64,000 nt of DNA from an uncultured Alphaproteobacteria bacterium (GTDB taxonomy: Bacteria > Pseudomonadota > Alphaproteobacteria > Rhizobiales > Xanthobacteraceae): contig CAVZFU010000005.1 in assembly GCA_963774685.1 (NCBI GenBank), positions 1,081,538 through 1,145,537 of the forward strand. Direction: 5' to 3'. Positions 1 through 14,284 of the stretch are shown here, one piece after another. Under the pieces are notes generated by a model, which saw nothing but the letters and a program-made list of their open reading frames with translations, searched no databases and was not told where the DNA came from. Within the stretch, counting starts at the first letter, position 1. Each line of letters opens with the position of its first letter. Made by a program: the position numbers and the translations under genes.

Positions 1-595
1 TGGTGATGCCGATGAACACCTGGCCGAGCTGGACATTGGGCTCGACCGTGGTGCCGACCCGGCGCACCTTGCCGACGACGTCGCCGCCGCCGATCACCTT
101 GATCTCGGCGTCCTGGCCGGGCTTGAGCTTGGCGAGATTCTCGGTCGGCACCAGGCCGACCAGGTCGAATTCGTTGCGGGCGATGATGGAAAACAGCGCC
201 TCGCCCTTGCCCGACGCATTGGCGCCGATCACCGCCGAGGAGGTGGCGATCAGCCCGCCGACCGGCGCCTGCACCTGCACCGAGCCGCCTTCCGGCAGCG
301 TGAGCCGGGCCAGCACCTGGCCGGCGGTCACGGTATCGCCGGCGTCGGCCAGGATTTCCGCGACTTTCAGGCCCTGCCGCTCGGGGCGGACCATGGTCTC
401 GTCCCGCGCGATCACGGTGCCCGAAACCTCGGCGACGGCGTCAAAGCACGACTTCGCCGCCTTGAGCACGGTGACCGTGGCGCCCTTCGGGGCGTCGGCT
501 TCGTCGGCGGCGAGGGAAGGGGACGCCGCGGCGAGGGTGAGGATGCTGGCGGCCATCGGGACCAGCCACGTCCGCGCGCGTTTGGATGCATTCAT
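1..595 (-). CDS. Efflux RND transporter periplasmic adaptor subunit (3' end outside the window); lacks the alpha-helical hairpin
   Basis: Not in the ORF track; translated manually from ATG at 595: MNASKRARTWLVPMAASILTLAAASPSLAADEADAPKGATVTVLKAAKSCFDAVAEVSGTVIARDETMVRPERQGLKVAEILADAGDTVTAGQVLARLTLPEGGSVQVQAPVGGLIATSS... It has a signal peptide and both lipoyl half-motifs, and resembles the adaptor at 10800-11729. Confidence 0.85.
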   Translation of the reverse strand, partial: MNASKRARTWLVPMAASILTLAAASPSLAADEADAPKGATVTVLKAAKSCFDAVAEVSGTVIARDETMVRPERQGLKVAEILADAGDTVTAGQVLARLTLPEGGSVQVQAPVGGLIATSSAVIGANASGKGEALFSIIARNEFDLVGLVPTENLAKLKPGQDAEIKVIGGGDVVGKVRRVGTTVEPNVQLGQVFIGIT

Positions 596-673
596 TAGCT
601 TTTGATCCCGTTTCCACGGTCATCGATATCAGAAGGCTGGCTTGGGAGCCAAGTGGCATCGAAAAGGTATAAC

Positions 674-710
674 TTGGTTTGCCAATTGGTAACATGTATG
701 GTACCATATG
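674..710 (+). promoter_or_regulatory. Putative sigma70 promoter and operator of the TA operon (leaderless start)
   Basis: TTGGTT(674-679)-N17-TATGGT(697-702), with ATG at 708 and no SD. Perfect palindrome TATGGTACCATA (697-708) overlaps the -10; CCAATTGG (682-689) lies in the spacer. Confidence 0.5.
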
Positions 711-1049
711 ATCGACGTCCAGGAATTCATTACCGAACAGGACGTAAACCCGTTCAGGCGCTGGTTTGACGATCTCGATGCTCAAGCAGCAGCCTGGGTT
801 ACGATTGCAATCGATCGGCTTGGCGAAGGCAACACTTCGAACGCGAAGTCACTTGGCGAAGGCGTTTCGGAACTGCGGATCAATCGAGGCCCCGGCTATC
901 GAATCTACTTCGGCTGGGACAGCAAGGTGCTTGTCATTCTGCTTGGCGGTGGCACCAAGCGACGGCAGCAGAGCGATATACAGACCGCGTTACATCACTG
1001 GCGTACATATAAGGCGCGCAAAGTGTCCGGACGGGCGAAGAGGGAGTAA
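708..1049 (+). CDS. Type II TA toxin, RelE/ParE superfamily (addiction module killer type)
   Basis: 113 aa with PFRRWFDDL...RLGEGN...GEGVSELRINRGPGYRIYF...LLGGGTK..QQSDI, characteristic of this family. Confidence 0.9.
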   Translation: MIDVQEFITEQDVNPFRRWFDDLDAQAAAWVTIAIDRLGEGNTSNAKSLGEGVSELRINRGPGYRIYFGWDSKVLVILLGGGTKRRQQSDIQTALHHWRTYKARKVSGRAKRE

Positions 1050-1051
1050 TC

Positions 1052-1378
1052 ATGCCGCTGACAAGAAGCTTTCGCGAGACGGTGCAAGCGCGGGCCCGCC
1101 GCGACGTCAAATTCCGGCAAGCATTACTAGCTGAAGCGATGCAGTTGCTGCTGGACGGCAATTTAGAGGAGGGGCGCTCTGCCTTGCGCTCGTGCATCAA
1201 CGCCACGGTCGGTTTCGAAAAACTTGGCAAAGCACTCGGCAGATCGCCAAAGAGCCTGATGCGCATGTTCGGACCGTCAGGCAATCCTACTGCGGAAAAT
1301 CTGCTTGCAGTGATCGGTCTGTTGCAGGAGGAGACCGGCGTTCGCCTCCACGTGCGTGCCGCGGCCGACGCTGCTTGA
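1052..1378 (+). CDS. Cognate HTH antitoxin / transcriptional regulator
   Basis: 108 aa, 2 nt after the toxin; INATVGFEKLGKALGRSPKSLMRMFGPSGNPTAENL is a Cro/C1-type HTH with the GNPT motif typical of these antidotes. Confidence 0.85.
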   Translation: MPLTRSFRETVQARARRDVKFRQALLAEAMQLLLDGNLEEGRSALRSCINATVGFEKLGKALGRSPKSLMRMFGPSGNPTAENLLAVIGLLQEETGVRLHVRAAADAA

Positions 1379-1440
1379 CGAAAGTCAAGCTTTGTAACTT
1401 GTCGCCTCTTGGCGAATTCTCCTGTCGTATCAATATGCTC

Positions 1441-1935
1441 TTACCCGACGGGCAAATCACCAAATCCTGTCAAGCCCCTCGCGTAAAAATATTCTGTTTT
1501 TCAGAAACGCGAATCAGCGCTATATCCATTCCGTCTCGCCCCCTGCAGGGGCGCTCGCGATCGTCACGGACGCGGGGCGGGATGCGGTGGACGCGGATGG
1601 CGCTGTTGACGAACAGCGCTTGACGCGGACGGTGAAGCCGTGTGGTCCTGACGCCTCGACGCCGGCGTCAAGTTTGCGAATTTTCGCAAATGACGGTGAC
1701 AAGAAAGCCCGATCACCGGGGAGAGCACGGAGTAAGCCGTAAACCATTGTGCGGGGAATGCCGGGTGATTCCGGTGTGACCGTGGTGACTGTTACTACTG
1801 GCATGGCTTGTTTTTCTGCCCTGCCAGGCTGCGGGCGCATTGGGCGCCCGGCATTCCCTGCGCCCTCTGTTTTCGAGGCGAAGGATTCTTTTACAACCCG
1901 GGTGGAATCGCGCCGCGGGATCGCGGAGGTACGTT
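1441..1935. repeat. Large, highly structured intergenic element (recalled as a dispersed Bradyrhizobiaceae repeat; possible ncRNA or non-autonomous element)
   Basis: Many hairpins: CGCCCC-TGCA-GGGGCG, GCGCTGTT-GACG-AACAGCGC, TTTGCGAA-TT-TTCGCAAA, CGGGCGC-ATTG-GCGCCCG, plus long-range GGGGAATGCCGGG / CCCGGCATTCCCT pairing. No credible ORF. The dispersed nature is recalled, not verifiable here. Confidence 0.6.
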
Positions 1936-1972
1936 TGTCGTTCCTGTGAACGCCCGCACTCGCCGCGGTTCT

Positions 1973-2125
1973 CCCTCGCCCCGCGCTTGCGGAGTCGAGA
2001 CGAGCGGAGCTCGCTCTTAGAGCGTCGGGGTGAGGGGCTCTCTCAACAGGCAGACTCGTGGAGGGTCCCCCTCACCCGAAATTCGCGATAGCGAATTTCG
2101 ACCTCTCCCCGCAAGCGGGGCGAGG
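1973..2125. repeat. REP/REPIN-like nested inverted repeat
   Basis: CCTCGCCCCGC..TTGCGG pairs with CCGCAAGCGGGGCGAGG; GGGGTGAGGGG pairs with CCCCTCACCC; internal hairpin CGAAATTCGC-GATA-GCGAATTTCG. Confidence 0.75.
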
Positions 2126-2131
2126 TAAAGT

Positions 2132-4615
2132 TTACGACGACAACTGGCTGCGCCGCGGCTCTGTGGCGGACACGTCATTCGCGGCCTCGGTCGGCTCGCC
2201 GTCGCCGATCCAGCGCAGGATATCCATGGCCAGCACCGGATGATTGAAACCCTTCAGCTGCAGGTCGTCGAGCTGGGCGGCTTCGACCCATTCCTCGACG
2301 ATGCCATAGACGCGCCGGGAGACCACGACCTGGCCGGCCTTGGCTTCGTCGCACAGCCGCGACGCCAGATTGGTGACGCTGCCGATCGCGGCATATTCCA
2401 GCCGTTGTTCGAATCCGATCTGGCCCAGCGTCGCATAGCCGAGCGCGATGCCGACGCCGAATCCGAGGCTGTGGCCGCGGTTGCGCCATTTCTGGGTCAA
2501 CAGGCCGATGGCGTCGCGCATCTCGACCGCCATCTTGACCGCGCGCCTGGTGTGGTCGGCAAACTTGATCGGCGCGTTGAACAGGATCATCACGCCGTCG
2601 CCGGCATAGCGGTCGAGCGTGCCTTCGTAGCGGAAGATCAGTTCGCCCAGTGCGGCATGATATTCGCGCAGCACGTTCATGGCTTCCTCGGGCTCGGTGG
2701 CCTCGGTGAAAGCGGTGAAGCCGCGCAGGTCGCAGAACACCACCGTCACTTCGCGGCGGTGGCTGTCGAGCAGCGAATCCTGGCCGTCGGAGGAGGCGAT
2801 CAGTTGCGCGACCTGCGGCGGCAGGAAGCGCTCGAGCCGGCGGATGCGCTCGATTTCGCCGATCTGCTTCTCGACCCGTTCTTCCAGCGACTTGTTCCAG
2901 TCCAGGAGCTGCTCGGTCTGTTCCTGCAGCTTGCCGGCCTGTTGCTGCACGATCGAATGCGCGGAGGCCAGTTCGCGGCCCTTATGGTCGACTTCGGTGA
3001 ACAGCCGCGCGTTGCGCATGGCGAGCACCGATTGATGCGCAAAGGTCCGCATCAGTCCGATCAGGTTCGGCGAGAATTCGCCGGTGGCCCGGCGCAGCAC
3101 CACCAGCGATCCGAGCGTGCCCTGCTGGTCGACCAGCGGCACCACCAGCACCGATTGAAAGCCGGCCTTGAGCGCGATATCGCGCAACAGGTTGTCGTCG
3201 GCGCCGGCAAGGTCGGAAATCGCGATCGGCTCGTCCCTGGTGGCGGCTTCGCCGAGCACGCTGGCGCCGTAGTCGATCGCAAGGTGCGCGCCTTCGGCGG
3301 TCTTGTCGATGCCGATGGCCTCGGTCAGGTTGAACTGCTGCTTTGCCGCGTCATAGCCGTAGATCAGCACCGCGTCGGCATGGGTGATTTCGAGCGCGCG
3401 CGCCGCCACCGTCGGCAGCACGGCGTTGAGATCGAGCGAGGAGGAGACGGCGCGGCCGACTTCCTCGAGCACTTTGAGTTCGTTGACCGAGCGCGCCAGA
3501 TCGCGGGTGCGCTCCTGGACCTTGGATTCAAGGCCCGAATAGGTCTCGGCGAGCTGGCCCGCCATGCTGTTGAACTGGTCGGCGAGCTCCTTCAGCTCAT
3601 CCCTGGTGCGCACTTCGATGCGGTGGCTGAAATCGCCTTCGCCGAGACGGCGCGCGCCGCTGCGCAAGGCGGTGATCGGGATCAGCATGCGTCGCGCCAG
3701 CACGGTGCCGGCGAGACTCGCCACCACCAGCCCGAGCATGATCAACAGCACGATCCGCGCCAGCTGATCGCGGATCGGCGCCATCGCCTGGCTGGTCGGT
3801 TGCTCGAAGAACACGTACCAGCCGAGTTTCGGCAGTCCGTTCGATGCGGTCAGCACCGCATGGCCGTCGGTATCGGTGCCCGAGGTCGGAGCCTGGCTCG
3901 CCGAGGTCAGGCGTGCGGCGACCTGCGGCAGGGTCGCGACGTTCTTGCCGACCTCCGGGCCCTTCGACGAACTCGCCAGCACCTGGCCTTTCGGATCGAC
4001 CACATAGGCAAAGGCGGCCCTGCCGACCTGGGCGTCGCCGATAAATTCCGACAGGAAATGCAGGTCGATATCGGCGATGGTGACCCCGGCGTTGTAGCCG
4101 GAATGCGACACCGAGATCGACATGAAGGGCTGCCGCTCCCGGAAGAACGCCGGCGAGTAGCTGACGCCCCTCGCAACGGTTTCGGTGAATCTCGGGTCGT
4201 GGGAGAGGTCGGCCTTGCTGCCGACCGCAATCGTCAGGCGCGACAGCCGCAACAGTTCACGGCCGCTGCCGTCGATCAGCGAGAGCTGGTTGACCGCGGG
4301 CACCTGGTTGAGCAGCTGGGCATAGTCGGCGCGGTGCTGTTCGAGCGGCGCGCGCGCTGCGTCCGAACTGGCGCGGGTCACCCAGCTGATCTGCCGCTCG
4401 AGTTCGGAGACCGACTGTTCGATCCGCCGCGCGGTGGTCTCGGCCTTGTCCGACATCGCCCCGGTCAGCGTGGTCTTGATGCTGCTGTAGCTGATCCAGG
4501 TTTCCAGCGCGCCGTTGACCGCGAGCACGAACACGACAAGACCAACCAGCGCGATCACGTATTTGGCGAACAGGCCCTCGCGCAGACGTCCAATTTTTTC
4601 CCTGAAACCGCTCAT
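2132..4615 (-). CDS. Membrane class III adenylate/guanylate cyclase (TM-Cache-TM-HAMP-GAF-cyclase)
   Basis: 827 aa with two TM segments, HAMP (DELKELADQFNSM), GAF (GTLGSLVV...TFAHQSVLAM) and catalytic motifs FCDLRGFT, AGDGVM, NLASRL. Confidence 0.92.
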   Translation of the reverse strand: MSGFREKIGRLREGLFAKYVIALVGLVVFVLAVNGALETWISYSSIKTTLTGAMSDKAETTARRIEQSVSELERQISWVTRASSDAARAPLEQHRADYAQLLNQVPAVNQLSLIDGSGRELLRLSRLTIAVGSKADLSHDPRFTETVARGVSYSPAFFRERQPFMSISVSHSGYNAGVTIADIDLHFLSEFIGDAQVGRAAFAYVVDPKGQVLASSSKGPEVGKNVATLPQVAARLTSASQAPTSGTDTDGHAVLTASNGLPKLGWYVFFEQPTSQAMAPIRDQLARIVLLIMLGLVVASLAGTVLARRMLIPITALRSGARRLGEGDFSHRIEVRTRDELKELADQFNSMAGQLAETYSGLESKVQERTRDLARSVNELKVLEEVGRAVSSSLDLNAVLPTVAARALEITHADAVLIYGYDAAKQQFNLTEAIGIDKTAEGAHLAIDYGASVLGEAATRDEPIAISDLAGADDNLLRDIALKAGFQSVLVVPLVDQQGTLGSLVVLRRATGEFSPNLIGLMRTFAHQSVLAMRNARLFTEVDHKGRELASAHSIVQQQAGKLQEQTEQLLDWNKSLEERVEKQIGEIERIRRLERFLPPQVAQLIASSDGQDSLLDSHRREVTVVFCDLRGFTAFTEATEPEEAMNVLREYHAALGELIFRYEGTLDRYAGDGVMILFNAPIKFADHTRRAVKMAVEMRDAIGLLTQKWRNRGHSLGFGVGIALGYATLGQIGFEQRLEYAAIGSVTNLASRLCDEAKAGQVVVSRRVYGIVEEWVEAAQLDDLQLKGFNHPVLAMDILRWIGDGEPTEAANDVSATEPRRSQLSS

Positions 4616-4732
4616 CCAGTCCCCTCGTGCGCCATTCCTAGCACAAATCGGGGGGTTTTGGCCGGGGACTGCCGGTGTGGTTAGCCGGGATTTTGGGCCG
4701 TTAATGCTAATTCCGGCGGCAGTGATGGAGGC

Positions 4733-6716
4733 CTAGCGATTGAATAACTGCTTGAGGACGTTGTTCATCGGCTGGCTGTCCTGCGGGGGCTGCGACGTCG
4801 AGTTGCTCTGCGCGCGGAGGCGTTGCGGCCGGCGGCGCGGCCGGGTTGGGGGGGCCGCCTTGCACGTTGCGGTTATTGCCCAATCCCTGCTGCAGCAGGT
4901 TACCGAGGGTCTCGCCGAGCTTGCCGCCGAGCAGGCCGGACTGGTCGGTGCCGCCGCCGATCCGGGGCCGCCAGATTGCGAGGTTGCCGAGACCGCCGCC
5001 TGCGAACAGGCCTTTGCCCATCTCCCTGAGCTTGGCATAGGCCGCGTCGGGGTTGTCGAAAATGCCGTTCATTTCCGGATAGATGCGCGGCTGGGCCCAG
5101 GGGCCGTCGATGATGACGGGAATGCCGAGCCCGACCGGGTCGCCGGCGCGGCCCTGGCCTTCGGTGGTCATCACGAGCTTCGGCTCGACCCGGAACGCGA
5201 GCTGCTTGCCGATCAGGTCGATGGTGCCGGCGCCGGTCATTTTAACCAGCGGGCCCACCAGGGTGAGATCGGAGGTGGTGGCCTGGCCCTTGTCGAGCCG
5301 GAACGAGGCGCTGAGCTGCGCAAGGTCGGTGGCTTGTCCTTTGCCTTCCTGCCAACCCGACAGCGTTCCCGAGGTCAGCGAACGGATCATCTGGGCGACG
5401 TTGAGGCCGCGGATCGCGCCGTCCTGGAAAATCGCGAACACCGTTCCGTTCAAATTCGAGACGATCTCGCGCGGGCTGTTGCCGGAGGAGTTTACAACGA
5501 TCTTGGCCTGCATCTTTCCATCGAGCTTGTCGAAATCGGCCGCGCTCTTGAGCAGCGCCAGCGCGCCAACCCCGGCAAGATCGCTGCGCAGCGTGTAGGC
5601 CGGATAGGCTGCGGATACATCGACGGTGAGTTGGCCGCCGGCCTGGCCGTCATAGGCCCCGAGATTGGGGAAGTCGGCCTTGAGCACGCCGCTGACGAGC
5701 GTGGTGTCGATCGCAGCGGGGGCGAAATGCGCCGCGCCGATGTTCAATTCGGCGGCGGAAACCCTGACCTGGAGGTCGATATAGTTCAGCCGGTTGACGT
5801 CGATCGATTCGGTGCTCCAGCCCTGCTGGGAAGCCTGCGAAGCAACCGGGGCGGCAGCCGCCGGTGTCGTGATGTCAAGCCGCTGGAAGTCGAGATCGAC
5901 TTTTACCAGCGGCTTGCTGGAGAGATCGACCGATGCCCATCCGTTGAATGCGCCATCGCCGATCGTCCCGCTCAGGCCGTTGATCATGGCGACCGAACCG
6001 TTGAGCCGGACGTCGGCCTTGCCCGACAGCGGAGCCTGCAGACGATTCGGGTCGTCGAGGGTCAGTTCGACCGGAAAGTTTTGCCGCTCGATCGGGGAAG
6101 CCGGCAGCGCCGCCCTGATTCCGAATTTGATCGGGCGTTCGCCCGCGCCGGCACTGCCGTTGATCTCGATCCTTCGATCGTCGCCGATCTTGATATCGGC
6201 ATTGATGTTGTCGATACGGCTGTTGACGAGGTCCCGCACGTTGGAAAATACCGCGGTGCCGTCGGTGACCGTCACGTGATCGATGACGAAAGCCTTCGCA
6301 TCGGTCGTGCTGGAGGATGTCGCCGGCCGGGGCGGCAAATTGGGTGCAATGGTGCGTTCGCGCAGCAGCGGGATGTGGACGGTCGGGTGAACAATCGCAA
6401 GCTCGGTGACTTGCGGATGACCCGACCATACGCTGGCAAGCGTCACATCGGCCTCGACGCTGCCGATGGTCAGGTGCTTGCTGATGTCGCGTTGTTGCGG
6501 GTCCTCAAGCGTGAGGTCTTTCAACGTCAGGTGCAGCGACGGCCAGATGCCGATTTTGGTCCCGCCGTGGATGGTCAGCTGATAGCCGGTTTCGCGCTCG
6601 ACCTGGTCCTGTATCGCCGACGTCAGAAAGCCGGAGGGAACGCCGACGATCAGCAACAGGATCGCGACAACCACCACGGCAGCGATGGTTGTGCCTGCAA
6701 TTTTCAGTGCTTTCAT
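4733..6716 (-). CDS. AsmA family protein (apparent +1 frameshift near 4815)
   Basis: N-terminal anchor with AsmA-like N and C domains. The plausible C-terminus QDSQPMNNVLKQLFNR* lies in another frame ending at 4733. Confidence 0.8.
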
Positions 6717-6848
6717 ATCGTCGTTCCAAACCGGGCAAGCAGCATCTAGGTAGCCCGTCGCGATCGGGCGTTGCTAATCATTCAAGCTTATCCCGGAGGG
6801 GAAACAGCTCAAAGCGACCAAAAATTAAGCGGGGGTGCTGCAAAGTTA

Positions 6849-6864
6849 TGTGACTTATGGCACA
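6849..6864. promoter_or_regulatory. CRP-type box between asmA and crp
   Basis: TGTGA-CTTATG-GCACA, one mismatch to TGTGA-N6-TCACA. Confidence 0.55.
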
Positions 6865-6922
6865 CTTCGAACGAAGCGGGTTTCGTACGATCCCTGTTGG
6901 CCACCTCAAGTAGCCGGAAGGC

Positions 6923-7603
6923 ATGGCAATGAGCAAACAGAGCGAATTCGCGGTTATTTTGAAGATGAATCCGATGTTCGCGGACCTCGGCGCCGACGAA
7001 TTGCAGCGAATCTCCGGTCTTTGTCATACCCAGCAGCTTTCAGTGGGCGGGGTGCTGTTCCAGAAAGGCGACAGCGGTGACGCCCTGTATGGGGTCCGCC
7101 GCGGCCAGATCCGGATCGAAACCGGCGCCTCCGATGGCAGCCGCCTGACCCTCAATTTCCTGGGTCCGGGCGACGTATTCGGCGAGGTCGCAGTGCTCGA
7201 CGGCGAGACCCGCACCGCGGACGCCACCGCAGGCGAGCCGACCGAATTGTTCGTGCTCCGGCGGGAAGACTTTCTCGCCCATCTCGAACGCGAGCCGCGC
7301 GTGGCGATCAAGCTGATCCAGCTTCTGTGCCAGCGGATTCGCTGGCAGAGCGAGCGGATGGAGGAATCGGTGCTGCAGCCGCTGCCGGTACGGCTGGCGC
7401 GACGGCTCTGCGCGCTCGCCTCCGATTTCGGCTCCGAGGTGCATATCTCCCAGGAGCAGCTCGGCGTTTTCGTCGGAGCGGCGCGCGAAAGCGTCAACCG
7501 TCAACTGCAGCAATGGCGCAAGGACGGCATCCTGGACCTGCAGCGCGGCCGGATTTTATTGCGAAACATCGGCCGGCTGACCGCAGTGGCGCGCAACGAA
7601 TAG
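6923..7603 (+). CDS. Crp/Fnr family transcriptional regulator (cNMP-binding)
   Basis: Phosphate-binding cassette GEVAVLDGETRTADA; HTH SQEQLGVFVGAARESVNRQL retains the CRP R-E-x3-R recognition residues. Confidence 0.93.
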   Translation: MAMSKQSEFAVILKMNPMFADLGADELQRISGLCHTQQLSVGGVLFQKGDSGDALYGVRRGQIRIETGASDGSRLTLNFLGPGDVFGEVAVLDGETRTADATAGEPTELFVLRREDFLAHLEREPRVAIKLIQLLCQRIRWQSERMEESVLQPLPVRLARRLCALASDFGSEVHISQEQLGVFVGAARESVNRQLQQWRKDGILDLQRGRILLRNIGRLTAVARNE

Positions 7604-7656
7604 CGCAAGGCTGCGCCCGCTCGCGGTACGACCGCGATGCGCTCCTCGGCTGATCG

Positions 7657-10600
7657 TTATTCCGCGGCCGGCGAATGTACGATGCTCGGCGGAGGTTTGG
7701 GATCTCCGGAATGATCGGCCGGCGGTTGCTCGGTATCGGTATTTGTAGAGACCAGTTTGTGGCCGAGCCGACTGAACAGCACGGCCACATCATCCATCAT
7801 CATGAACATCGCCGGCACGAACACCAGCGACAGCACGGTGGAGAATATCAGGCCGCCGATCACGGCCAGCGCCATCGGCGAGCGGAATTCACCACCGGCG
7901 CCTTCTGCCAACGCGCTCGGCGTCATGCCGGCCGCCATGGCAATGGTCGTCATGACGATGGGTCGGGCGCGCTTCATGCCGGCGTCGATGATCGCTTCGG
8001 TGCGGGGTTTGCCTTCGCGGATCGCTTCGACCGCGAATTCCACCAGCATGATGGCGTTCTTGGTAACGATGCCCATCAGCATCAGCATGCCGATATAGAC
8101 CGGAACCGTCAGCTGGTTGCCGGTCAGCAGCAATGCCCCGATCGCGCCGCCGATCGAGAGCGGCAGCGAGAACAGGATGGTGATCGGCTGCAGGAACGTT
8201 CCGAACAGCAGCACCAGGACGGCGTAAACAATCATCAAGCCCAGGGTCATCGCGGTGACAAAGCCGCTCGCCAGATCCTTGAGGGCTTCAGCATCGCCGG
8301 AGGGGGCGACCGTGACGCCCTTCGGCAGGCTTTTCTTGACGGGCAGCTCATCGATCCTCTTGGTGGCTTCGCCCAACGCCGCGGATCCGACGAGGTCGGC
8401 AGCAACCGTCGCCTGGCGTTGCCGGTCGTAGCGATTGATGCTGGTGGGGCCCTGATCGAGCTTGATGTCGGCGACAACGGACAGCGGCACGCCGCCCTTT
8501 TCGCCGCGCTGGCCCAAAGGGACCCTCAATTGCTCGAGGATCGGCAGATCGCCGCGCGCTGAATCCTCGAGCTGGACCCGGATCGGCACCAGCCGGTCGC
8601 CGGCGTCGAACTTGGCAAGCGCCGGACCGACGTCGCCGATGGTGGCGACCCGAATCGTCTGCGACAGGCTTTCGGTGGAAACGCCGAGCCGCGCCGCCAG
8701 ATCCGCCCGCGGCTGGATCCGTAATTCGGGACGGTCGAGCGAGGTCTCGGAGATCACGTCCGAGATCAGCGGAATCCGCTTCATCTGCGTCGCCAGCTCG
8801 TTGGCGACGTTGCCGACCACGTTGCTGTCCACGCCGGTCACGACCAGCGATATGGCGCGCTGACCATTCTCGTCGAGGAACCAGTACCGGATGTCCGGAA
8901 CATTTTCGAGGTCCTTGGCGATCGAAAGCTCAAGTTGGCGTTGCGTGATCTTGCGTTCGCCTTTCGGCGTGTAGTTGATGATCAATGCCGCGCGACGTAC
9001 TTCGAGCGTTCCCGGCGGCACCCGGCCGCCATCGACGAACACGCTCTTGACCTCCGGCCGCTTGCGCAGACGCGCGACAATTTCTTCGGTGACCTTCTCG
9101 GTGAAAGCGAGCTGCGAGCCGGGCGGCAACTCCATTGCCAGCAGCGAGCGCGCCGCGTCCTGGGCCGGAAGGTAACCTTGTGGCAGCTGGGTAATGCTCC
9201 AGATCGAGGCTGCGAAGATTCCGAAGCCGACCAGCACGGTGATGAAATAGTGCTGCACCGACCAGGCTACGAGGCGATGATAGCTTTGCAGCGCGCGTCC
9301 CGGCGGCGGATCTTCGTGCGTATGATGCTTCAAGAAATAAGCGGCCAGCATCGGCGTGACGAAGCGGGCCGCTAGCAATGAAAAGAATACCTGCACCGAC
9401 ACCGTAATGCCGAACTGCTTGAAGAATTGACCGGCGATCCCGGACATGAAGCTTGCAGGTGCAAAGATCGCGATGATGGTCAGGCTGATCGCGATAACGG
9501 CCAGCCCGATTTCGTCGGCGGCCTCGAGGGCCGCACGATAGGGCGTCTTGCCCATCCGCATGTGCCGGACGATGTTCTCGATCTCGACGATGGCGTCATC
9601 GACCAGAATGCCGGTCGAAAGGGTGATGGCAAGAAAACTGATGAGGTTGAGCGAGAACCCGAGAATGTCCATCGCCCAGAATGCCGGGAAAATCGACAGT
9701 GGTAGCGAGATCGCCGCGATGGCGGTGGCGCGGATGTCGCGCAGGAACAGCAGGACGATGATGACGGCGAGAATGGCGCCCTCGAACAGCGTCCGGATGG
9801 CAGCCTCGTAGTTGCCTTTGGTGAAGTCGACCGACGTGTCGATCAGCTTGAGATCGACATCGGGATACTGATCCTTGAGGGCATCGATGCGTTTCTGGAT
9901 CGCCGCTGCGACGACCACGTCGCTGGCGCCCTTCGAACGTTTGATGCCGAGCGCGACCACCGGTTCGCCGTTGAAGCGGGCAAATGTCCGGCGGTCGGCG
10001 ATGGTGTCGGTCACGGTCCCGAGATCGTCCAGGCGTACTTCGCCGCCGCCGAATAGCGGAATCATGGTTCCGGCGAGATCGTTGAGCGTCTTGGCGCCCG
10101 CCAGCGTCCGGATCGCCTGATCGTTCTTTCCAATCTCAGCCCGGCCGCCGGCAAGGTCGACATTGGTGCCGCGCAGGCTTTGGCTGACGTTGACGGCGGT
10201 CAGGCCGGCGGCCTGCAACCGGTCGGGATCGAGCGACACCAGGATTTCGCGCTCGACGCCGCCGATGCGCTCGACCTGGGCGACGTTGCGCACGCCTTGC
10301 AGCGCGCGCTTGACCACATCGTCGACGAAGTAAGACAACTGTTCGGGCGTCTTGCCGGGCGAGATCGCGGCATAGGTGACGATGGGCAGACCGATCACAT
10401 CAACGCGTTGAATCAGCGGCTCGTTGACGTTTTGCGGCAGATTGCTTCGAACGCTGGTGACGGCATCCTTGACGTCATTCAGCGCCCGGTCGGTGTTGGT
10501 TTCGAGCGCGAACTCGATCGTCGTCAACGACAGTCCGTCGGTGATCGAGGATGAGATGTGCCGCACGCCCTCGACGCCTGATACGCCGTCTTCGATGGTC

Positions 10601-10803
10601 TTGGTAACCTGCAATTCCAGTTCGGCCGGGGCGGCGCCGAATTGTGCTACCGCAACCGAAATCACGGGGATATCGGCGCTGGGAAGGCGGGTCACCGCGA
10701 GCTTGGTGAAACTCATCCAGCCCAAAACCAGCAGGATGATCGAAAAAACGATGGACGGAAGCGGGTTTCGAATCGACCACGCCGAGATATTCAGAGCCAT
10801 CAA
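7657..10803 (-). CDS. RND efflux permease (AcrB/D/F family)
   Basis: 1048 aa; proton-relay motifs GILVDDAIVEIENI, GIVTKNAI and RARPIVMT are intact. Confidence 0.95.
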   Translation of the reverse strand: MMALNISAWSIRNPLPSIVFSIILLVLGWMSFTKLAVTRLPSADIPVISVAVAQFGAAPAELELQVTKTIEDGVSGVEGVRHISSSITDGLSLTTIEFALETNTDRALNDVKDAVTSVRSNLPQNVNEPLIQRVDVIGLPIVTYAAISPGKTPEQLSYFVDDVVKRALQGVRNVAQVERIGGVEREILVSLDPDRLQAAGLTAVNVSQSLRGTNVDLAGGRAEIGKNDQAIRTLAGAKTLNDLAGTMIPLFGGGEVRLDDLGTVTDTIADRRTFARFNGEPVVALGIKRSKGASDVVVAAAIQKRIDALKDQYPDVDLKLIDTSVDFTKGNYEAAIRTLFEGAILAVIIVLLFLRDIRATAIAAISLPLSIFPAFWAMDILGFSLNLISFLAITLSTGILVDDAIVEIENIVRHMRMGKTPYRAALEAADEIGLAVIAISLTIIAIFAPASFMSGIAGQFFKQFGITVSVQVFFSLLAARFVTPMLAAYFLKHHTHEDPPPGRALQSYHRLVAWSVQHYFITVLVGFGIFAASIWSITQLPQGYLPAQDAARSLLAMELPPGSQLAFTEKVTEEIVARLRKRPEVKSVFVDGGRVPPGTLEVRRAALIINYTPKGERKITQRQLELSIAKDLENVPDIRYWFLDENGQRAISLVVTGVDSNVVGNVANELATQMKRIPLISDVISETSLDRPELRIQPRADLAARLGVSTESLSQTIRVATIGDVGPALAKFDAGDRLVPIRVQLEDSARGDLPILEQLRVPLGQRGEKGGVPLSVVADIKLDQGPTSINRYDRQRQATVAADLVGSAALGEATKRIDELPVKKSLPKGVTVAPSGDAEALKDLASGFVTAMTLGLMIVYAVLVLLFGTFLQPITILFSLPLSIGGAIGALLLTGNQLTVPVYIGMLMLMGIVTKNAIMLVEFAVEAIREGKPRTEAIIDAGMKRARPIVMTTIAMAAGMTPSALAEGAGGEFRSPMALAVIGGLIFSTVLSLVFVPAMFMMMDDVAVLFSRLGHKLVSTNTDTEQPPADHSGDPKPPPSIVHSPAAE

Positions 10804-11729
10804 CGTCCCCGCGTTCGATCGAGGTCCTCGGCGAATATGGTCTTGATCTGGTCGCCGTCATGCAGCGAACTGCCGGCGTCGGCCACGACGGTTTCGCCTA
10901 CGTCGAGACCTTCCAGGATTTCCGTCGAGGTGTCGGACACCAGTCCGACACGAACCTTTCGCGTCTCGACCGTATTCCCTTTGACCACCTGAACGGTCAG
11001 ATGGTCAATGGCGGTGCGCGGGACGGAAACGCCGTTGCAGCTTTGTTTGGCGTTGATGTTGGCGCGGGCGAACATGCCTACCTTGAGGGACGGATTGTTG
11101 GTGAGCGATATCCTGACATGGCCGAGCTGGGTCGCGCGATCGATTTGCGGCGACACCTGCCTGACGCGCCCGACGAGATCCGGCGCGTTATCCCGGCTGA
11201 TCCGTACTATCGCTCCCGGATTGAGCTTCGTCATGTGGAAGGCAGGTACTTCGGCGTCGAGTTCGATTTCGTTGTTGACGGAAATTCGAAACATCGGACC
11301 GGCCTGCGGCGAGGCCGGCGCTCCGACGATGGTATTGACCTGGATGACCAGCCCGGCGGCCGGCGCACGCAGCGAGGTCGGAGCGGATCGCGCGCCGCCG
11401 GCGGGAGCTCCGGGCTGCGCCGGCGGAGGCGTCAAGCGGGCCAGTTCCTGATTGTCGGTAACCGTGTCGCCTTCGTGGACCAGAAGATCGGAAACCTTGG
11501 ATCCCTCCTGGTCGACCCCGACAACCGCTTCCCGGCGGGGCACGACAAATCCGGTGGCCCGCACCAGGTCGGAGAAACAGGCATTGGTGGATTTGGTCAC
11601 GACAACCAGGGCTTTGCCCGGCGCTTCCTTGTCTTCGACAGGGGGACGATGCTCGAACCAGTACCATGCGCCACCCAGGGCAATCACGGCAACCGCGGCT
11701 ATCGCGGGTTTGAAGTATGCGGAGAGCAT
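10800..11729 (-). CDS. RND periplasmic adaptor, hairpin-less
   Basis: N-terminal TM; lipoyl halves VHEGDTVTDNQELARL and LRAPAAGLV joined by a ~20 aa Pro/Gly/Ala linker; beta-barrel and membrane-proximal domains (GLDVGETVV). Overlaps the permease start. Confidence 0.88.
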   Translation of the reverse strand: MLSAYFKPAIAAVAVIALGGAWYWFEHRPPVEDKEAPGKALVVVTKSTNACFSDLVRATGFVVPRREAVVGVDQEGSKVSDLLVHEGDTVTDNQELARLTPPPAQPGAPAGGARSAPTSLRAPAAGLVIQVNTIVGAPASPQAGPMFRISVNNEIELDAEVPAFHMTKLNPGAIVRISRDNAPDLVGRVRQVSPQIDRATQLGHVRISLTNNPSLKVGMFARANINAKQSCNGVSVPRTAIDHLTVQVVKGNTVETRKVRVGLVSDTSTEILEGLDVGETVVADAGSSLHDGDQIKTIFAEDLDRTRGR

Positions 11730-11776
11730 CATCGCCGGATCAATCCAGGCCCTGTGTCGGGAGGAGCGTTTTGGAT

Positions 11777-11818: not shown

Positions 11819-11938
11819 AACCACCGTGTCCGTGCCAGCGCACCATCCCTGAATGGCAAAGAATGCGTCCCGCAAGGCTGCGGGACGCATAACGGTTGCA
11901 GAACTTTACTCAGTGCCAGCGCCTGTCGACGGGTCCGT

Positions 11939-12598
11939 TCACTTGTTGGACGCGGTGGTCTTGTTCTCCATATTCACGACCTGCACGCGACGGTTCGCCT
12001 CAGCCAGCGGGTCGCTCTGGTTCTTGAGCTTGGTCTTGCCATAGCCGACCGTCACGAGATCGGGGGCGGCGATACCGAACTTGCTCATCAGGTAACGCTT
12101 GATCGAGTCCGCGCGCCGCTCGGACAGGTCCTGGTTGAAGGAGTCACCGCCGGCGGCGTCGGTATGGCCCGCGACGAGGAAGGTCGACCCCTTCAGGTCG
12201 GGATTGGTAAGCGCTCTTCCGAGAGCCTGAACCGCCGGCAATGATTTGGCGCTGATATCGGCTGAATTGTAGTCGAAAGTGATTTCCAGATCGATATTCG
12301 GCTTGTCCTTGACCATGGTGGCGATTTCTTCGCGCTCGACGTTCGAGAGCGAGCGGGTCGACCGGTTGCGAATGGTGCTGACAAAACGCCCTTCGCGGGC
12401 GACGGCCTCCGGATCGACCTGTGGGCCCACCGACAAGCCTCTGGTCAAGACCGGCTTGACCGGAACCAGCGCCTTGACGATTTGATCCTCAGTGACATCG
12501 CCGGCGACGGCTCTTCCCACGCCAAAGGAAAGTGTCACGGCAATCGTCGCGATCGAAAGGATCGCGGTGAGATTTTTCCTTCCAGACATCTTCAACAT
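11939..12598 (-). CDS. OmpA/MotB C-terminal-like peptidoglycan-binding protein
   Basis: Signal peptide; ITFDYNSADI, VAGHTDAAGGDSFNQDLSERRADSIK, NRRVQV. No beta-barrel. Confidence 0.9.
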   Translation of the reverse strand: MLKMSGRKNLTAILSIATIAVTLSFGVGRAVAGDVTEDQIVKALVPVKPVLTRGLSVGPQVDPEAVAREGRFVSTIRNRSTRSLSNVEREEIATMVKDKPNIDLEITFDYNSADISAKSLPAVQALGRALTNPDLKGSTFLVAGHTDAAGGDSFNQDLSERRADSIKRYLMSKFGIAAPDLVTVGYGKTKLKNQSDPLAEANRRVQVVNMENKTTASNK

Positions 12599-12766: not shown

Positions 12767-14284
12767 TCAATTTACCCCATAACTCGCGAATTCCTTAGCA
12801 ATATTTGGGTCCATGGCCTTGGCGTTGTTTATATCCAGGTTGCCCTCCTCCGTCGCGCCATTGCGTTGCTTGGCGAGGCCGCGCCCGTACAGGGACGAAG
12901 TCAGCCTCGGATTGATCTTCAGGGCGGCGTCGAAATCGGCAATCGCATTCTTGGTCTGCCCGCTCTTCAGGTTCACGAGGCCACGGCTGTCGAGGGCGTC
13001 GACAAAGTTCGGGCGCAACCGAAGCGCCTCGTTGCAATCCTTCAAGGCGGCCTGCAGGTCGCCGATCACCGTGCGCGCCCAGCACCGGTTGTTGTAGGCC
13101 TCGACGTCCTTGGGATTGAGCCGCAGCGAGTCGTCGAAGTCCCTGATTGCAAGGCTATAAGCTCCCTTGCTGGCGTAGACCTGTCCGCGCCGGTAAAGCG
13201 AGGCCGAGTCGTCCGGGTTTTCGATCAGCTTGGCCGTCAGGCTTTTGATGGTCGGGTCATCTGCGAATGTGTCGTTTTTGGCTACCGATGTAATCGGGGG
13301 AGTGACCGGAGCAGCGACTGGCGGAGCCACCGGAGCAGCGACCGGGGGAGTAACCGGTGGGGCGACTGGGGGAGCAACGGGTGGCGCGACTGGCGGGGCA
13401 ATCGGCGGTGCGACCGAAACCTCCGGCGATTTTGGAGGCAAAGGCGGCAGCGGTGGCGGCTGTGGCGGCAGCGGCGGGGGTTCGTGAGCGGGGACCGATG
13501 CTACCGGACCGGGCGGCCGCGGGCTCGAACCCGGCGTACCCGGGATAAACGAAAAATCCTCAGCCAGAGAGGACGAAATCCATGGCACCTGTTCGAGGCG
13601 GGATGCGCGGGTGACGCCGACGCGGGTTCGATTGAGCGTCTCTTCAGCCATCAGGTCGGGAACGCGAATTTCCTTGAGCAGCTCTTGTACGAACAGGCTG
13701 CGGTCGCCGCCATCATCTGAGACGACCGAACTAAGCGCCGCCGAGTACATCACCAGCGTTCCGTTCGGCGCGATCACCGGTGCGAGACCGGCCGAAAAAC
13801 TCCGGAATCGGCGCTCAAAGGGATTGCGCCTGCTGGCGTCGATCAGTGCGATTTTGACGCCGGCGCCGCGGCTGTTGATTTCGCTCAGCACCGTTTCGAG
13901 GCTGAAACCATCGCGGCGCACGTCAGGCTCGGTCCAGATCTGCGCATCGACCGGGATCATGTAGCTCTGGCGGGCTGACTGTACGCCGAATCCGCTGAAG
14001 AAAATCAGCGCAATAGAGCCGGGCTTGATGCGAGCGTAGAGGCGATCGAAGGCGCGGCGCATGTTTTCGCCGGTCAGGTTTTCGCCGATTTCGACGCTAA
14101 ACCCGTCGCGCTTGAGCTCGTCGGCGACGTCACGGGCGTCGTTTATCGGTTCCTTGAGCGGCGCATCGGCGTCGGGATATTTGGCGTTGCCGATGACCAG
14201 AGCGAACCGGTCGGCCGCAGCCGACGGGGCGGCTGGCGCGATCGAAAAAATCAAGATCAGAAGCAGTGCAAGGCGCGTTCTCAT
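12767..14284 (-). CDS. Secreted caspase-like (peptidase C14) domain + Pro-rich linker + TPR repeats; catalytic dyad substituted
   Basis: RFALVIGNAKY...PINDA; FFSGFG replaces the usual AGHG and DASR replaces DACR; C-terminal TPRs (AYNNRCWAR, ALDSRGLVNL). Confidence 0.9.
   Translation of the reverse strand: MRTRLALLLILIFSIAPAAPSAAADRFALVIGNAKYPDADAPLKEPINDARDVADELKRDGFSVEIGENLTGENMRRAFDRLYARIKPGSIALIFFSGFGVQSARQSYMIPVDAQIWTEPDVRRDGFSLETVLSEINSRGAGVKIALIDASRRNPFERRFRSFSAGLAPVIAPNGTLVMYSAALSSVVSDDGGDRSLFVQELLKEIRVPDLMAEETLNRTRVGVTRASRLEQVPWISSSLAEDFSFIPGTPGSSPRPPGPVASVPAHEPPPLPPQPPPLPPLPPKSPEVSVAPPIAPPVAPPVAPPVAPPVTPPVAAPVAPPVAAPVTPPITSVAKNDTFADDPTIKSLTAKLIENPDDSASLYRRGQVYASKGAYSLAIRDFDDSLRLNPKDVEAYNNRCWARTVIGDLQAALKDCNEALRLRPNFVDALDSRGLVNLKSGQTKNAIADFDAALKINPRLTSSLYGRGLAKQRNGATEEGNLDINNAKAMDPNIAKEFASYGVN
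13290..13414 (-). repeat. Degenerate 12-nt tandem repeat encoding about ten PPVA-like units
   Basis: Protein VAPPIAPPVAPPVAPPVAPPVTPPVAAPVAPPVAAPVTPPIT. Confidence 0.9.

Follow-up and report, generated by a model that had tools for sequence, protein, structure and literature searches.

A stretch of 64,000 nucleotides from an uncultured alphaproteobacterium of the family Xanthobacteraceae (assembly GCA_963774685.1, contig CAVZFU010000005.1, positions 1,081,538–1,145,537; here called the window) encodes a permease of the resistance-nodulation-division (RND) type and two periplasmic adaptor proteins, termed MFP1 and MFP2. The alpha-hairpin is absent from both adaptors. The synteny of related loci indicates that MFP1 and MFP2 are paralogues that serve one RND permease and are not parts of two pumps. 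The reading put forward here, to which we give a probability of roughly 0.45, is that of a hairpin-less pump with two adaptors that is co-inherited with a set of periplasmic partners.

Absence of the hairpin from both adaptors

The lipoyl half-motifs of MFP1, ELARL and APAAG, are bridged by TPPPAQPGAPAGGARSAP (residues 101–118), and those of MFP2, LARL and APVGG, are bridged by TLPEGGSVQVQ. Across the hairpin-less family this inter-motif stretch is 11–47 aa in length, rich in Pro, Gly, Ala and Gln, and not conserved. Hidden Markov model (HMM) coordinates point the same way: the match to the TIGR01730 (RND_mfp) profile covers positions 1–57 and then 135–320, and the hairpin columns (58–134) are skipped. 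Both proteins nevertheless score above the curated cut-off of 94.9 bits for this profile, MFP1 with 105.6 bits and MFP2 with 95.9 bits when its two in-frame pieces are summed. Pfam matches to PF25954 and PF25989 (YknX_C) are found on adaptor orthologues in precomputed annotations. Of the genome's adaptor genes, roughly a dozen or more in number, only MFP1 and MFP2 skip the hairpin.

The sequence of BesA, the adaptor of Borrelia burgdorferi (PDB 4kks) and the only hairpin-less one with a solved structure, aligns contiguously with MFP1. A MAFFT alignment that includes Escherichia coli AcrA as well as the closest relative with a hairpin shows a gap in the adaptors at exactly AcrA residues 99–172, which we take from the AcrA domain boundaries to be the hairpin.

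Structural modelling gives the same picture. The AlphaFold2 model of MFP1 (pLDDT 82.5) consists only of a lipoyl domain, a beta-barrel domain and a membrane-proximal (MP) domain; there is no helix between strands E96–101 and E119–122, which are joined by a 17-residue loop. The model of MFP2 (pLDDT 86.4) has a 5-residue loop at the hairpin site, and the hairpin region is all-beta in both models. Foldseek searches against the PDB return BesA chains as the top eight matches of both models (E ~1e-17), and fold searches with the two models match adaptors only. The initial annotation, made from the DNA letters, had noticed short linkers between the lipoyl half-motifs of two adaptors, had concluded that the hairpin is missing from both and had named AlphaFold models as a check. 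The linkers are as it described them, and its conclusion is borne out independently by the HMM coordinates, the BesA alignment (for MFP1), the MAFFT alignment and the AlphaFold2 models, neither of which shows a hairpin.

A conserved cysteine pair

The hairpin-less adaptors carry a second signature. The conservation of MFP1 residues Cys52 and Cys232 is 90% or higher in a set of 41 representatives, taken from clusters at 50% identity. In a set of 57 sequences, both Cys residues occur in 43 of the 44 hairpin-less members, one member has neither, and none has a single one. Not one of the 13 nearest hairpin-bearing relatives carries either residue, and most of these have no Cys at all. In many hairpin-less members the pair represents the only two Cys residues of the protein. 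The second Cys of MFP2 (Cys219, in the motif KSCN) lies outside the window. Thus the residues in which the initial annotation had seen a possible disulfide are a conserved and co-varying pair.

The two positions align with AcrA residues 49 and 303, which, given the AcrA domain limits, presumably lie at the boundary between the beta-barrel and MP domains. We infer from these alignments that the pair may form an intramolecular disulfide that stiffens the hinge between the two domains; such a staple is likely because the pair maps to this hinge.

Two paralogues and one permease

On the minus strand of the window the genes are transcribed in the order C14-TPR (a caspase-like protein with TPR repeats), OmpA-C, MFP1 and RND permease (Table 1). 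The stop codon of MFP1 overlaps the start codon of the permease gene (TGATG), and the two genes are translationally coupled. MFP2 has no RND gene alongside it in this genome, and its downstream neighbour is a second, convergent C14 gene (C14b).

Neighbouring genes were counted by tblastn searches with the window's own proteins in 26 genomes. MFP1 directly adjoins the RND gene in 23 of these. The position of MFP2 is more varied. In genome G505 the gene order is C14-TPR, OmpA, MFP1, RND, MFP2, C14b, and MFP2 also follows the RND gene directly in G614 and G822. Only an AsmA gene stands between RND and MFP2 in G661 and G634. The G661 locus (L035) is an operon of C14-TPR, OmpA, MFP1, RND, AsmA and MFP2 with gaps of no more than ~30 nt, with a 4-nt overlap between OmpA and MFP1. 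L035 was found on an ENA metagenome contig of 144,318 bp; it does not represent an independent lineage, because its sequence is that of G661 contig C28, with an identical MFP2. In G835 the two adaptor genes are in tandem, in the order MFP2, MFP1, RND (L126, G835:C1:9296–14279). In the window's genus and most other genera examined, a block of Crp, AsmA and cyclase genes parts RND from MFP2. Variant layouts include those of L114 (G667:C45) and L123 (G741:C18).

Copy number and phylogeny agree with a single system. Exactly two adaptor copies are present in 61 of the 70 positive genomes. A tree was built with the hairpin columns excluded and with the 13 nearest hairpin-bearing relatives included; BesA was not placed in it. 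A branch with an SH-aLRT of 96 separates the hairpin-less proteins from these relatives, and the hairpin-less proteins divide into an MFP1-type clade (SH-aLRT 99) and an MFP2-type clade (SH-aLRT 92). Every genome with both copies placed in the tree contributes one protein of each type. MFP1 and MFP2 are ~36% identical. The two clades are old, and the topology is consistent with one loss of the hairpin followed by a split into the MFP1 and MFP2 types. Co-encoding and co-inheritance of both adaptors with one permease are thus observed in synteny, in the tree and in copy number. The heading under which the initial annotation listed the genes, two RND adaptors, would suggest two pumps, and on this point it is not borne out.

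One genome, G596, has a third hairpin-less adaptor copy (L106, G596:C8:167130–167948), which lies within an open reading frame of 551 aa. Upstream of the adaptor, this frame resembles a nucleotide cyclase domain, and represents either a fusion or an in-frame upstream gene.

The window taken by itself might suggest separate machines: MFP1 would serve the RND permease, and MFP2, as an orphan, would act with a different transporter or with the neighbouring pseudo-caspase only. Here MFP2 is ~10 kb from the permease gene, past the cyclase and a toxin gene, and is convergent with the second pseudo-caspase gene; in G600 the two adaptor copies are megabases apart. This explanation is improbable, however, in view of the loci in which MFP2 comes right after RND or is separated from it by AsmA only, the tandem adaptors of G835, the copy number of nearly always exactly two, and the co-inheritance of the MFP1 and MFP2 clades.

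Distribution

Hairpin-less adaptors are found in 70 of 251 genomes, and in 22 of 62 genera, of the window's GTDB family (full-length contiguous matches of >260 bits). Outside the family there is one carrier genome (G596) among 301 sampled across the order, and no other full-length match of >190 bits was found in 301 genomes sampled across the class. As the initial annotation stated, such adaptors are rare: they account for two of the genome's many adaptor genes and are almost absent outside the family. Homologue searches returned mainly Bradyrhizobium sequences, and the taxonomic range is taken from the genome searches. Among cultured strains, the module is carried by B. erythrophlei (e.g. GAS478), B. 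cenepequi and B. archetypum, among others. The genome of the window is itself Bradyrhizobium-like: the closest named homologues are labelled 'Bradyrhizobium sp.', and the G+C content of the window is ~62%.

Comparison with known adaptors

Reviews treat BesA as the sole 'aberrant' adaptor. Greene et al. note comparable sequences 'rarely in proteobacteria (e.g. Legionella)' (PMC3807786), and a 2026 review of adaptors mentions neither BesA nor hairpin-less forms. BesA, a component of B. burgdorferi BesABC (PDB 4KKS, 4KKT and 4KKU), resembles MFP1 and MFP2 in having lipoyl, beta-barrel and MP domains and a short loop in place of the hairpin. The TM-scores of BesA with both models are 0.55–0.72 when normalised to the BesA chain, and the sequence identity is ~18%. 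BesA is a lipoprotein; its genome has no other adaptor, and its gene shares an operon (besCAB) with the outer-membrane factor (OMF) gene besC (PMC3807786). By contrast, a signal anchor is present in MFP1 and a cleavable Sec signal peptide in MFP2, and neither has a lipobox. The pump described here also differs in its two paralogues, in the conserved Cys pair and in the lack of an OMF gene in the locus.

In phmmer comparisons BesA gives an E-value of 8e-6, weaker than the 1.6e-11 of a hairpin-bearing TriAB chain, and in the tree, from which BesA is absent, the hairpin-less family branches beside hairpin-bearing alphaproteobacterial adaptors. As these are the nearest relatives in sequence, the hairpin was probably lost independently of the loss in BesA, which itself is not in the tree.

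TriA and TriB of Pseudomonas aeruginosa carry alpha-hairpins, unlike MFP1 and MFP2. In TriABC–OpmH (PDB 6VEJ) they are likewise two distinct adaptors with one RND permease, and their identity to one another (36%) is about that of MFP1 to MFP2. Among characterised RND pumps TriABC is the only one that has two different adaptors, and it is the closest analogue of the system in the window; the fused TriA–TriB chain of 6vej is also the best PDB match by sequence. The outer-membrane channel used by TriABC is OpmH. With AcrA and MexA the adaptors have in common the lipoyl, beta-barrel and MP domains, the coupling to a permease of the HAE1 type and a TIGR01730 score above the cut-off. They differ from AcrA and MexA in the deleted hairpin, in an anchor that is not of the lipoprotein type, and in the Cys pair at the hinge between barrel and MP domain.

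The RND permease

The permease is of the HAE1 type (AcrB/MdtB-like). PF00873 matches positions 2–1020 of its 1021 residues. The proton relay was described as intact in the initial annotation, and all five residues (D407, D408, K940, R971 and T978 in AcrB numbering) are indeed present; they are kept in 11 of 11 permeases, i.e. that of the window and ten relatives. The docking domain (DN/DC) is complete and departs from that of AcrB only by indels of 2–4 residues. The domain was also searched for an elaboration that might compensate for the missing hairpins, and none was found.

Conserved neighbours of the adaptor genes

A C14 pseudo-caspase gene is present in the locus in 24 of the 26 genomes, an OmpA-C gene in about 18 and an AsmA-like gene in about 17. 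The co-occurrence of OmpA-C and C14-TPR genes with hairpin-less adaptors, which the initial annotation had suggested should be sought by phylogenomics, is therefore found in these proportions (the figure of 24 being for C14).

Both C14 caspase-like proteins are exported, and in both the catalytic His and Cys are replaced, by SGFG and DASR motifs in the TPR protein and by GGYG and DASR in the second. They match the Rhizobiales pseudo-orthocaspase classes FS-with-TPR and YS (Klemencic et al., 2019; PMC6426788). That work gives no genomic context or link to pumps (the terms 'efflux', 'OmpA' and 'neighbo' have no occurrences), and no paper tying Bradyrhizobium RND pumps to OmpA-C or caspase-like genes was found in the literature. 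The second C14 gene is located at ~1080201–1081190 (+) of genome contig C5, just beyond the window. Its reading frame continues without a stop across MFP2, in antisense orientation.

The nearest hairpin-bearing relatives (G560, G532 and G529) have an MFP–RND pair without any accessory gene. The adaptors at L107 (G560:C2) and L108 (G532:C52) are ~398 aa in length and have no Cys; their RND permeases are 57–59% identical to that of the window, and there are no OmpA-C, C14 or AsmA neighbours. Therefore hairpin loss, Cys gain, adaptor duplication and the acquisition of pseudo-caspase and OmpA-C genes go together.

AsmA-family proteins are periplasm-spanning lipid conduits. This raises the question of whether the system might be an exporter of lipids or other envelope components, in which the permease would pass hydrophobic cargo to an AsmA-like bridge toward the outer membrane, so that no channel would be needed. 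The AsmA-like gene lies inside the tight operon of G661, between RND and MFP2, and near the adaptor genes in ~17 of the 26 genomes, as this explanation would have it. Yet the gene is missing from the locus in ~9 of the 26, including the compact arrangement of G505, and the permease is of the HAE1/MdtB type with a funnel and not of the HpnN/MmpL type. Such an exporter is hardly probable.

A gene for a 621-aa protein with no Pfam match, P0127, is found beside the MFP2/C14b end (L034:8594–10459 (-), equivalent to C5:1078131–1079996), and is followed by SNase and LssY_C genes. It occupies the same place in at least 10 genomes (e.g. G505, G600, G611, G630, G631, G647 and G654), and may be a further member of the module.

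Dependence on a TolC-family channel

TolC independence, which the initial annotation proposed for this pump, is only something that we infer. Counted for it are the lack of hairpins in both adaptors, the lack of OMF genes in the loci, and the fixed set of exported partners that is co-inherited with the adaptors. No OMF gene occurs in any of 35 loci (with a positive control on the window's own genome), and the count for the 26 genomes is likewise zero. It should be pointed out that the genome has only three OMF genes and roughly a dozen or more adaptor genes. The missing nearby OMF gene is uninformative for this reason, and the hairpin-bearing relatives are likewise without one.

OMF_c, of lipoprotein type and the only one of the three that was followed across genomes, has an orthologue in 22 of 26 module-bearing genomes and in 9 of 22 others. 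It was considered as a dedicated partner and rejected, because genomes of the same genus without the module (G612 and G617) keep it, and G741 and G596, two complete genomes with the module, lack it.

A doubtful but serious alternative is a tripartite pump of the BesABC kind. The adaptor ring and permease crown would dock onto a TolC-family channel encoded elsewhere and the cargo would leave the cell; the OmpA-C, pseudo-caspase and AsmA genes would be regulators, stabilisers or unrelated neighbours. BesABC itself provides the precedent (PMC3807786). The complete and conserved docking domain fits such a pump, as do the small number of OMF genes, which are shared in trans by the genome's adaptors in any case, and the hairpin-bearing relatives that have no OMF gene next to them. 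Set against this are the 35 loci without an OMF gene, and the presence of OMF_c in module-free genomes together with its absence from complete module-bearing ones. The genome's OMFs presumably serve its ordinary hairpin-bearing pumps. In addition, the hairpins of adaptors are proposed in reviews to unlock the gates of OMFs, and the same reviews note that the gate system of BesC is disrupted.

Several observations weigh against the reading of a two-adaptor pump with co-inherited periplasmic partners. OmpA-C, the pseudo-caspases and AsmA are candidate partners, tied to the pump through their genes. OmpA-C and AsmA are lacking in several loci, and for this reason neither of them can serve as a required outlet. 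MFP1 does not adjoin an RND gene in three genera; an RND gene (62–64% identity) is there either a few kb off or absent from the 20-kb stretch. Most of the genome's pumps must in any case draw on the three OMF genes in trans, and BesA, the only hairpin-less adaptor characterised so far, works with a TolC homologue, BesC (Greene et al., 2013; PMC3807786). Finally, the docking domain of the permease is 73–81% conserved, compared with 72–77% for the permease overall, and is collinear with the permeases of hairpin-bearing relatives.

A possible mechanism

If the two-adaptor reading is correct, membrane-anchored MFP1 and soluble MFP2 would most likely combine into a mixed ring that surrounds a single proton-driven RND trimer, by analogy with TriA and TriB around TriC. 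A ring without hairpins would be unable to form the coiled-coil tube through which RND pumps are joined, tip-to-tip, to TolC. In that case the top of the pump, i.e. the permease crown and lipoyl ring, would be engaged directly by another partner. The partner proposed here is the co-inherited periplasmic set, made up of the OmpA-C protein, which binds peptidoglycan, and the TPR pseudo-caspases, joined in most lineages by an AsmA-like bridge. The cargo would then be passed on at the cell wall and not expelled via a shared TolC duct.

In its full form the proposal is that of a TolC-independent envelope machine. A disulfide-stiffened two-adaptor ring would link the RND motor to a wall-anchored assembly of OmpA-C and dead-caspase TPR proteins, with the AsmA-like bridge in most lineages. 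This full form is unlikely, although far from fanciful.

Other features of the window

The coordinates of the features are collected in Table 1. The initial annotation had assigned the span 1–11729 to the adaptor system. The adaptors and permease are there, and the span also holds unrelated or inserted genes, namely those of the HigB-like toxin, the cyclase, the AsmA-like protein and the Crp regulator. A small open reading frame at 1052–1378 (+) directly follows the toxin gene, and the two are a probable toxin–antitoxin pair inserted between cyclase and MFP2.

The conserved start of MFP1 is the sequence MML at 11732/11729. A longer frame of 348 aa, with an ATG at 11846, is not conserved in orthologues. 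In MFP1 orthologues of the same genus the frame opens only eight codons upstream of the conserved Met, and the longer frame was rejected because the orthologues carry a stop just upstream of the conserved start. The complete MFP2 gene extends upstream of the window, and was read from the genome (C5:1081242–1082132, 296 aa).

Table 1. Features of the adaptor–permease region, in positions of the window
Feature	Position	Strand	Description	Basis
MFP2	2..595	-	Second hairpin-less adaptor; first 198 of 296 aa; cleavable Sec signal peptide	
MFP2 loop	284..298	-	Residues 100–104 (LPEGG), in place of hairpin	
MFP2 Cys50	446..448	-	KSCFD; partner Cys219 encoded beyond window	
HigB/Gp49-like toxin	708..1049	+	Toxin gene	
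Nucleotide cyclase	2132..4615	-	Cache-HAMP-GAF; between AsmA and MFP2 in most genera examined	
AsmA-like protein	4707..6716	-	Membrane-anchored	
Crp/Fnr-type regulator	6923..7603	+	cNMP-binding; divergent; between RND and AsmA genes in most genera examined	
RND permease	7657..10803	-	HAE1/MdtB-like; proton relay and docking domain intact	
MFP1	10800..11732	-	Hairpin-less RND periplasmic adaptor, 310 aa; uncleaved N-terminal membrane anchor	TIGR01730, AlphaFold2 model
MFP1 Cys232	11037..11039	-	Second of conserved pair (QSCN); aligned with AcrA Pro303	
MFP1 linker	11379..11432	-	Residues 101–118, in place of alpha-hairpin	Alignment and model
MFP1 Cys52	11577..11579	-	First of conserved pair (NACFS); aligned with AcrA Pro49	
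OmpA-C	11939..12598	-	Peptidoglycan-binding; exported, 219 aa; conserved neighbour upstream of MFP1	
C14-TPR pseudo-caspase	12767..14284	-	Exported; catalytic dyad replaced (SGFG, DASR); first module gene	

Significance

In current models, tripartite pumps assemble through adaptor hairpins that meet TolC tip-to-tip, and BesA has been a single awkward exception. The adaptors described here define a second lineage without hairpins, well defined and fairly widespread, which is much larger and probably arose independently. Roughly one in three of the family's sampled genera share the design, which provides a second, as yet uncharacterised test case for pump assembly. The lineage is amenable to testing, with its derived characters (the Cys pair and two paralogues), its fixed candidate partner genes and its cultured Bradyrhizobium carriers. 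It raises the question of what replaces the hairpin, and of whether an RND pump can work without the TolC duct. The module also gives the pseudo-caspases of Rhizobiales, which have been catalogued without a function, a concrete context. If the TolC-independent envelope machine outlined above does exist, it would represent a new way to connect an RND pump with the outer layers of the Gram-negative envelope.

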